Of a stretch of 54,435 bases of DNA, positions 53,868-54,177 are shown one piece after another. Source of the DNA: Escherichia phage PhiR12_1; sequence record PV340549, one strand, 5' to 3'. Positions within the stretch are counted from its first letter, which is position 1, and each line of letters begins with the position of its first letter. The position numbers and the translations under genes were made by a program. Under the pieces are notes generated by a model. That model saw only the letters and a list, made by a program, of their open reading frames with translations. It had not been told where the DNA came from and searched no databases.

Positions 53868-54116
53868 TTACCGAATAAACCAGTCGTCCGCGGTTTCCCA
53901 GACTTCCTTCAGCGTTTCCTGAACGAACTTTTGAGCAGACTCTTTATCCACGGATCTTAAAATTGTCAGTCCATCATTGCTGGCAGATTTTACGATCACA
54001 TCTACATCATCATAACGTTTACTGACACGTCGCAGCATCTCTTGCTGCAGGGCAGGAACAGAACCGGTTGGCATTTTAGTCATTTTCTCTTTGGCTATGC
54101 AGATTTCAATACGCAT
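53868..54116 (-). CDS. dinI: DinI-family protein
   Basis: 82 aa; MRIEICIAK...[15 protein letters not shown] parallels E. coli DinI (MRIEVTIAK...QETWESADDWF, recalled); gaggga RBS; LexA boxes upstream. Confidence 0.8.
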
Positions 54117-54129
54117 AAAAATCCCTCTA

Positions 54130-54177
54130 CACTGTGTTTGTATACAGTGTTATTTTTAACTGTATGGATAAACAGTA
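54130..54177 (-). promoter_or_regulatory. two LexA (SOS) boxes in the dinI-like promoter
   Basis: caCTGTgtttgtatACAGtg (54130-54149) and aaCTGTatggataaACAGta (54158-54177), both CTGT-N8-ACAG. Confidence 0.65.

Follow-up and report, generated by a model that had tools for sequence, protein, structure and literature searches.

A predicted LexA-controlled DinI-like gene at the ssrA-proximal end of the Escherichia prophage PhiR12_1

The last gene of the lambdoid prophage PhiR12_1 encodes a DinI-family protein and lies behind two LexA boxes that flank its predicted -10 element. We consider it highly probable that this gene constitutes a self-contained, LexA-repressed 'moron' cassette at the att end of the prophage, encoding a RecA-binding paralogue of DinI. 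This reading is anchored in the identity of the gene, the quality, position and conservation of its operators, the boundaries of the cassette and its prophage context, all of which are direct observations. LexA control of a prophage dinI is already established in Salmonella, and the idea that such a gene modulates induction is not new either. What is specific here is that two operators surround the -10 element, that the gene is monocistronic and that it holds a fixed att-side place in phages with an autocleaving CI. The finding mainly supports annotation, extending Gifsy-type LexA control of dinI to an E. coli lambdoid cassette.

A DinI-family gene at the ssrA junction

The window, that is, the whole stretch of 54,435 bases analysed here, is a lambdoid prophage that is 99.5-100% identical to Escherichia phage PhiR12_4 outside one replaced stretch of the lysis region; no paper on phage PhiR12 was found in the searched literature. 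The integrase gene int lies near the left end and is followed by cI/cro/cII/O/P, lambda-like head and tail genes and an Eib-type gene. The DinI-like gene is the last gene of the prophage, positioned at the tail-fibre/att end and transcribed inward from the ssrA junction. The gene, the junction and the phage repressor are located as follows:

53868..54116, minus strand: gene of the DinI-like family encoding 82 aa, from ATG to TAA (from the ORF list)
54387..54435, minus strand: ssrA (tmRNA) 3' end and attR core (Rfam RF00023 match of 53.4 bits covering model positions 325-374 of 374)
10800..11507, minus strand: CI repressor (HTH_3 and Peptidase_S24, E=4.4e-16)

The ssrA gene is cut by the right end of the window, and a partial copy of the ssrA 3' end occupies window positions 1-25. 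In strain NCTC9112, which carries a near-identical chromosome, the order is dinI-like gene, full ssrA, smpB. This order and the tmRNA 3' end bear out the preliminary description, which had assigned the gene to the ssrA-proximal end of the prophage. The pairing of HTH_3 and Peptidase_S24 domains identifies the phage CI as a lambda-type autocleaving repressor.

The same description had called the 82-aa product a member of the DinI family, and Pfam, PDB and PHROG matches agree on that assignment. The match to Pfam PF06183 (DinI) has E=1.2e-16 and 61.2 bits, where the gathering score is 24.2, and spans the full profile (positions 1-63 of 63). Residues 1-81 match the solved E. coli DinI (PDB 1ghh/7ywa; E=5.8e-11), and the match to PHROG 189, 'RecA filament binding protein DinI', reaches E=9e-27 over only positions 71-149 of that 151-position profile. 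RefSeq names the protein 'DinI-like family protein'. Its score against the DinI equivalog model NCBIfam NF007893 is 62.3 bits, under the cut-off of 111, and its identity to E. coli DinI is 37%, with a two-residue insertion after Ala8 in the alignment. The sub-cut-off score and the low identity together indicate a paralogue of DinI rather than an orthologue, and judged by this divergence its activity could differ from that of DinI.

Several further features were noted in the flanks and elsewhere in the prophage. A stretch of approximately 870 bp in the lysis-gene region (22078-22947), which takes the place of approximately 40 bp of PhiR12_4, is the sole large difference between the two phages. 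The ssrA att core is flanked on either side, at 74-93 and 54275-54294, by the palindrome CACGTGCATTTTACGTGCAT, with similar palindromes in phages LMessi (L098 2640-2665 and 2838-2860) and CP-1639; they could serve as integrase arm sites or as terminators. Inward of the DinI-like gene, the plus strand carries a 359-aa Eib-type protein with a YadA-like membrane anchor (52012-53091), followed by homologues of the P-Eib prophage genes orf-156 (53150-53653) and orf-60 (53637-53831), with PHROG matches at E=2.5e-98 and E=7e-24, respectively. By homology, an Eib-type (immunoglobulin-binding) cargo module thus directly precedes the DinI-like gene.

Operators, promoter and boundaries of the cassette

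The region between the DinI-like gene and ssrA, together with the terminator beyond the stop codon, contains the following elements:

54130..54149, no strand: proximal LexA box CACTGTGTTTGTATACAGTG, 13 nt 5' of the ATG and over the predicted transcription start, heterology index (HI) approximately 7.8
54158..54177, no strand: distal LexA box AACTGTATGGATAAACAGTA, in the -35/-10 spacer, HI approximately 4.5
54152..54181, minus strand: predicted sigma-70 promoter (consensus scan)
54120..54126, minus strand: ribosome-binding site AGAGGGA, read from the sequence and conserved in the cassette alignment
53837..53856, minus strand: intrinsic terminator (terminator scan), 12 nt past the stop codon
54242..54300, minus strand: pair of hairpins separating the 3' end of ssrA from the promoter (terminator scan; fold -18 kcal/mol, z=-2.65)

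Within the two 20-mers lie exact CTGT-N8-ACAG cores at 54132-54147 and 54160-54175. The window holds six matches to this pattern where 0.62 are expected, a number reached in none of 100 shuffles. Because the bare pattern is a weak test, a symmetrised position matrix was built from 28 E. coli LexA boxes and was calibrated solely by setting our HI values against the Courcelle heterology indices printed in PMC11228462. Our values and the published ones agree closely for umuD (2.2 and 2.1), recN (3.7 and 3.5), recA (5.0 and 5.0), yebG (6.3 and 6.3) and lexA (6.8-7.4 and 7.4); the tisB box used for the matrix is at odds with the HI list of that paper. Over all 54,435 bases the matrix ranks the distal box first (HI 4.5) and the proximal box second (7.8), with the third-best site at 11.7. 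Proven E. coli boxes span HI values from approximately 2 to 8, a range within which both phage boxes fall, and the distal box is comparable to those of recA and sulA. By chance, sites with HI<9 arise at a rate of 0.0027 per 150 nt, as estimated from unrelated flanks in other genomes, 332 kb in total. The two CTGT-N8-ACAG boxes that the preliminary description had read upstream of the gene are therefore exact matches as well as the two top-ranking LexA sites of the window. The four other matches to the pattern, at 20570, 23987, 37530 and 48845, have G+C-rich spacers and fall outside the 15 best matrix scores, and were for these reasons treated as chance occurrences. As a separate observation, the third-best site, TACTGGATCAATCCACAGGA at 12255-12274 (HI approximately 11.7), is a weak LexA-like site located where a short interval separates the cII stop codon from a small ORF ahead of the replication gene O; a similarly weak LexA box has been reported at Gifsy replication genes together with their SOS induction (PMC8072944).

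The predicted promoter consists of a -35 element, TTGATA, at 54181-54176 and a -10 element, TAAAAA or AAAAAT, at approximately 54158-54152, separated by a spacer of 17-18 nt. It matches the consensus at 9 of 12 positions, with a weak -10, and has an annotated counterpart in phage mEp460. On the minus strand, in the 5' to 3' direction, the region ahead of the gene runs TTGATA, CTGTTTATCCATACAG, TTAAAAATAA, CACTGTATACAAACACAGTG, TAGAGGGATTTTT and ATG, such that the LexA boxes flank the predicted -10 of a promoter placed by consensus only.

At the downstream boundary, the terminator folds as GGGGAGU...ACUCCCC followed by U6 (-13.6 kcal/mol, z=-4.8) and is common to the DinI-like gene and the convergent orf-60. 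Its location 12 nt beyond the stop codon indicates that the DinI-like gene is monocistronic. At the upstream boundary, ssrA and the DinI-like gene are transcribed in the same direction, and the second of the two intervening hairpins (54259..54242) is followed by T7. Both hairpins are conserved in the ssrA-integrating phages CP-1639 and LMessi, and we infer that they stop transcripts coming from ssrA and protect the promoter under LexA control. No plus-strand gene diverges from the boxes, as only ORFs of 30-39 aa lie between the boxes and ssrA; this stretch is a conserved att arm.

Distribution and relatives of the cassette

Cassettes of this type occur in the E. coli phages mEp460, cdtI, YYZ-2008, 1720a-02 and CP-1639 and in Stx1-, Stx2a-, Stx2c- and Stx2d-converting phages, always as the last gene at the tail-fibre end, directed inward and next to int or the chromosomal junction. 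The junctions seen are ssrA, tRNA-Pro, yecD, btsS and prfC. Among 5426 complete E. coli genomes, 2014 (approximately 37%) carry the cassette, with up to eight copies per genome, and O157-type strains have several. The cassettes of mEp460, cdtI, YYZ-2008, CP-1639 and the Stx phages share the same two boxes and 75-86% nucleotide identity with the PhiR12_1 cassette from the -35 to the stop codon, and E. coli lambdoid cassettes share its terminal place by int/att and its orientation antiparallel to the tail genes. PhiR12_1 differs from these relatives in its allele and in its flanks: upstream lies the ssrA att arm, and downstream lie the Eib/orf-156/orf-60 genes with the terminator. The genes of the E. 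coli cassettes are widely annotated, as 'DinI-like family protein' or 'RecA filament binding protein DinI'. In the searched literature, neither a description, an annotation nor a test of the operators of the E. coli cassettes was found. In E. coli Ecol_AZ146 (L095 1-1278), a frameshifted copy of the cassette adjoins a pair of genes encoding a reverse transcriptase and a SLATT-domain protein, a retron-like defence module.

Alignment of 16 distinct E. coli phage cassettes places the limits of homology exactly at the -35 element on one side and at the stop codon on the other. Conservation amounts to 97.7% for the CTGT/ACAG cores, 82% for the other operator positions, 87.6% for the whole promoter and 86% for the -35 hexamer, and stands at 27% upstream of the -35; the first, second and third codon positions are conserved at 80%, 91% and 64%, respectively. 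By this measure the operators are under selection, being better conserved than the largely synonymous sites, and this constraint indicates that DNA-damage timing matters for the function of the gene. In one clade the distal box reads CTGG...ACAG, which breaks the palindrome and still fits the LexA consensus.

The association extends beyond E. coli. A LexA box (HI<12.6) lies within 150 nt upstream of the gene at 73 of 80 DinI-family loci, each from a different species. The closest subfamily, with products of 81-82 aa, commonly has two boxes at approximately 41 and 13-14 nt from the ATG, while several members have one; the subfamily includes loci of Escherichia, Shigella, Erwinia, Mixta and Pantoea, and the proximal box stands at a distance of approximately 13-14 nt in the Escherichia, Shigella, Erwinia and Mixta homologues. 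DinI types of 74-78 aa have a single box approximately 18-21 nt from the ATG. Since the spacing of the two boxes ranges from 24 to 29 nt among homologues, helical phasing is not strictly maintained and cooperative binding cannot be assumed. The ssrA-integrating phage LMessi shares the att arm and both boxes with the window at 89% identity, and the gene behind its boxes (L098 2217-2483, minus strand) encodes an 88-aa DinI-family protein (Pfam E=2.5e-22) that is 25% identical to the window protein. On this comparison, the link between the operators and a DinI-type product has outlived replacement of the gene itself.

The best-characterized precedents are the dinI homologues of the Gifsy prophages, which are under LexA control through boxes with HI values of 3.9-5.3 located 19 nt from the ATG, respond to nalidixic acid with 4.6- to 23-fold induction and yield a protein that accumulates after mitomycin C (PMC8072944, PMC3121763). 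In Gifsy-1, -2 and -3, as here, a prophage DinI-family gene directly follows a LexA box and is preceded by a terminator-like palindrome (PMC3121763). However, the Gifsy genes have one box at 19 nt, whereas two are present here at 13 and 41 nt, and dinI of Gifsy is the leading gene of an operon that also includes an antirepressor gene and irsA, the repressor of those phages being non-cleavable, in contrast to the monocistronic gene at the att end of a phage with an S24-type CI. In E. coli, the prophage dinI-like gene c0943 changed in step with sulA, umuD and recN (PMC2817434). E. coli DinI itself (1GHH; RecA complex 7YWA) resembles the phage protein in fold family, length, C-terminal WE(S/T)ADDWF helix, RecA contacts and LexA control, but its gene has one operator instead of two, and the phage gene is mobile. 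The Tum protein of coliphage 186 is likewise LexA-controlled and DinI-like in its C-terminal half (PMC3121763), but comprises 146 aa with an N-terminal antirepressor half, compared with 82 aa for the phage protein. Operator quality, the position of the boxes around the -10, the conservation of their cores and the Gifsy precedent (PMC3121763, PMC8072944) together support the earlier proposal that the DinI-like gene is under SOS/LexA control.

RecA contacts, alternative explanations and proposed model

In the RecA-DinI cryo-EM structure, residues L13, L21, W71, W77 and F78 of DinI form a pocket for RecA F203, and an acidic patch of E24, E69 and D76 faces RecA K232/R243/K245 (PMC9926225). Alignment to DinI gives M15, L23, W73, W79, F80, E26, E71 and D78 as the equivalents in the phage protein. 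Seven of the eight contact residues (L21, E24, E69, W71, D76, W77 and F78) are thus identical, and the replacement of L13 by Met is conservative; on the strength of this identity, the phage protein is likely to bind RecA filaments. LexA, UmuD and lambda CI engage the same elements of the RecA groove as DinI (PMC9926225), which makes competition between the phage protein and these groove substrates structurally plausible. DinI stabilizes RecA filaments when stoichiometric and inhibits UmuD cleavage and recombination when in excess (review PMC6590174). An effect of the DinI-like protein on CI autocleavage, as the preliminary description had suggested, is plausible from these comparisons and from the Peptidase_S24 domain of the phage CI, and because the action of DinI depends on its concentration such an effect could be of either sign. 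That induction is limited by phage dinI has already been put forward as a speculation in work on Stx phages (PMC8456039). Non-polar dinI deletions in Gifsy-1 and Gifsy-3 did not significantly affect induction (PMC3121763), a result that is silent on CI autocleavage since these phages use antirepressors and non-cleavable repressors.

These features were weighed against four other explanations, two of which concern the upstream region and the organization of the locus. The palindromes might be RNA or DNA hairpins, acting as terminators or as stabilizers of the mRNA 5' end, or chance occurrences in AT-rich intergenic DNA, with the gene being constitutive or phage-controlled. The proximal box was indeed flagged as a plus-strand terminator-like hairpin and folds at -10.6 kcal/mol on the plus strand and -8.2 kcal/mol on the minus strand, but the distal box forms a weak fold (-4.1 kcal/mol, z=-1.6), conservation peaks at the CTGT/ACAG cores (98%) and not over the whole stem, and boxes recur at the 73 of 80 species loci described above. 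The CTGG...ACAG clade, which loses the palindrome and keeps the LexA consensus, further disfavours a hairpin function. The pattern of conservation and the CTGG variant led us to reject a hairpin or terminator reading, which we regard as very improbable. The gene might also head a Gifsy-type operon (LexA box, dinI, small antirepressor, irsA), whose antirepressor would be the effector acting on a non-cleavable repressor, given that Gifsy-1, -2 and -3 have the same gene family, the same LexA-box position and terminator-like palindromes upstream (PMC3121763). Such an operon is ruled out by the strong terminator 12 nt past the stop codon, by the next 700 nt, which are taken up by the plus-strand orf-156 and orf-60 with minus-strand ORFs overlapping them, and by the Peptidase_S24 domain of the phage repressor; we give this possibility almost no weight.

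The remaining two concern the gene product. [quoted passage not shown] Pairing between the last 150 nt and the start region of E. coli ftsZ, however, reaches -14.5 kcal/mol, compared with -17.0 +/- 2.6 kcal/mol for shuffles, of which 85% are as good or better, whereas the 3' region of K. oxytoca dinI in the same test gives -26.5 kcal/mol, equalled by none of 60 shuffles. With pairing no better than in shuffles and a 3' UTR that is not conserved among cassettes, where homology stops at the stop codon, this candidate was rejected; it also has no Rfam match, and it strikes us as scarcely credible. Alternatively, the protein may have diverged from RecA modulation towards, for example, a role in virulence or fitness (cf. 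Salmonella MsgA, itself a DinI-family member), with SOS control as an ancestral remnant. Its identity to DinI of only 37%, its location among lysogenic-conversion cargo (the Eib gene) and the listing of prophage DinI-like proteins as 'fitness' cargo (PMC6456863) are compatible with such divergence. Against it stand the retention of all tested RecA-contact positions and the stronger constraint on the operators than on synonymous sites, and we consider this explanation improbable.

Under the preferred reading of a LexA-repressed cassette encoding a RecA-binding paralogue, the predicted sequence of events begins in the undamaged lysogen, where LexA dimers would occupy both operators and block RNA polymerase, with the stronger operator between the -35 and -10 elements and the weaker one over the transcription start. 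The upstream hairpins would halt read-through from the strongly transcribed ssrA. Upon DNA damage, activation of RecA would bring about self-cleavage of LexA and open the promoter, and a single-gene transcript for the 82-aa DinI paralogue would end at the terminator 12 nt past the stop codon. With its hydrophobic pocket and acidic patch kept, the protein would sit in the groove of the RecA filament and add to host DinI in filament stabilization, and at a higher dose it would compete with UmuD, LexA and the S24-type CI on RecA. In this scheme, the binding of LexA in this phage, the binding of the product to RecA and an influence on induction, of whichever sign, are predictions from sequence comparison.

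A more ambitious and rather unlikely extension holds that the paralogue is non-redundant with host DinI and acts, after both operators are freed, as a dose-dependent gate on S24 repressor cleavage, with the protein pooled from all copies in strains with several lambdoid prophages setting both the threshold and the timing of induction, that of Shiga-toxin phages included. Should the cassette indeed modulate the RecA-stimulated cleavage of repressors, it would amount to a widespread means, encoded by phages, of controlling the threshold for induction, with a bearing on Shiga-toxin release and on SOS mutagenesis in lysogens. If the gating were true, one prophage could influence the induction of its neighbours.

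Two antirepressor modules were observed elsewhere in the prophage, and the matrix scan of the window found no good LexA box at either. The first, in the nin region, comprises isrK and a C4 antisense RNA (15477-15664, plus strand) just upstream of an 'antirepressor' gene; the second comprises a P22-type sar RNA (40150-40216, minus strand) beside a second antirepressor gene inserted within the tail gene region. The two ant genes are linked by a 300-nt direct repeat (16118-16417 and 40818-41117, 98% identity). A full-length match to the STnc100 sRNA family (143 bits) lies at 18728-18933 on the plus strand, downstream of the Q antiterminator region, and a tail-fibre ORF contains 9-nt periodic repeats that code for collagen-like GXY units at 46874-47732.
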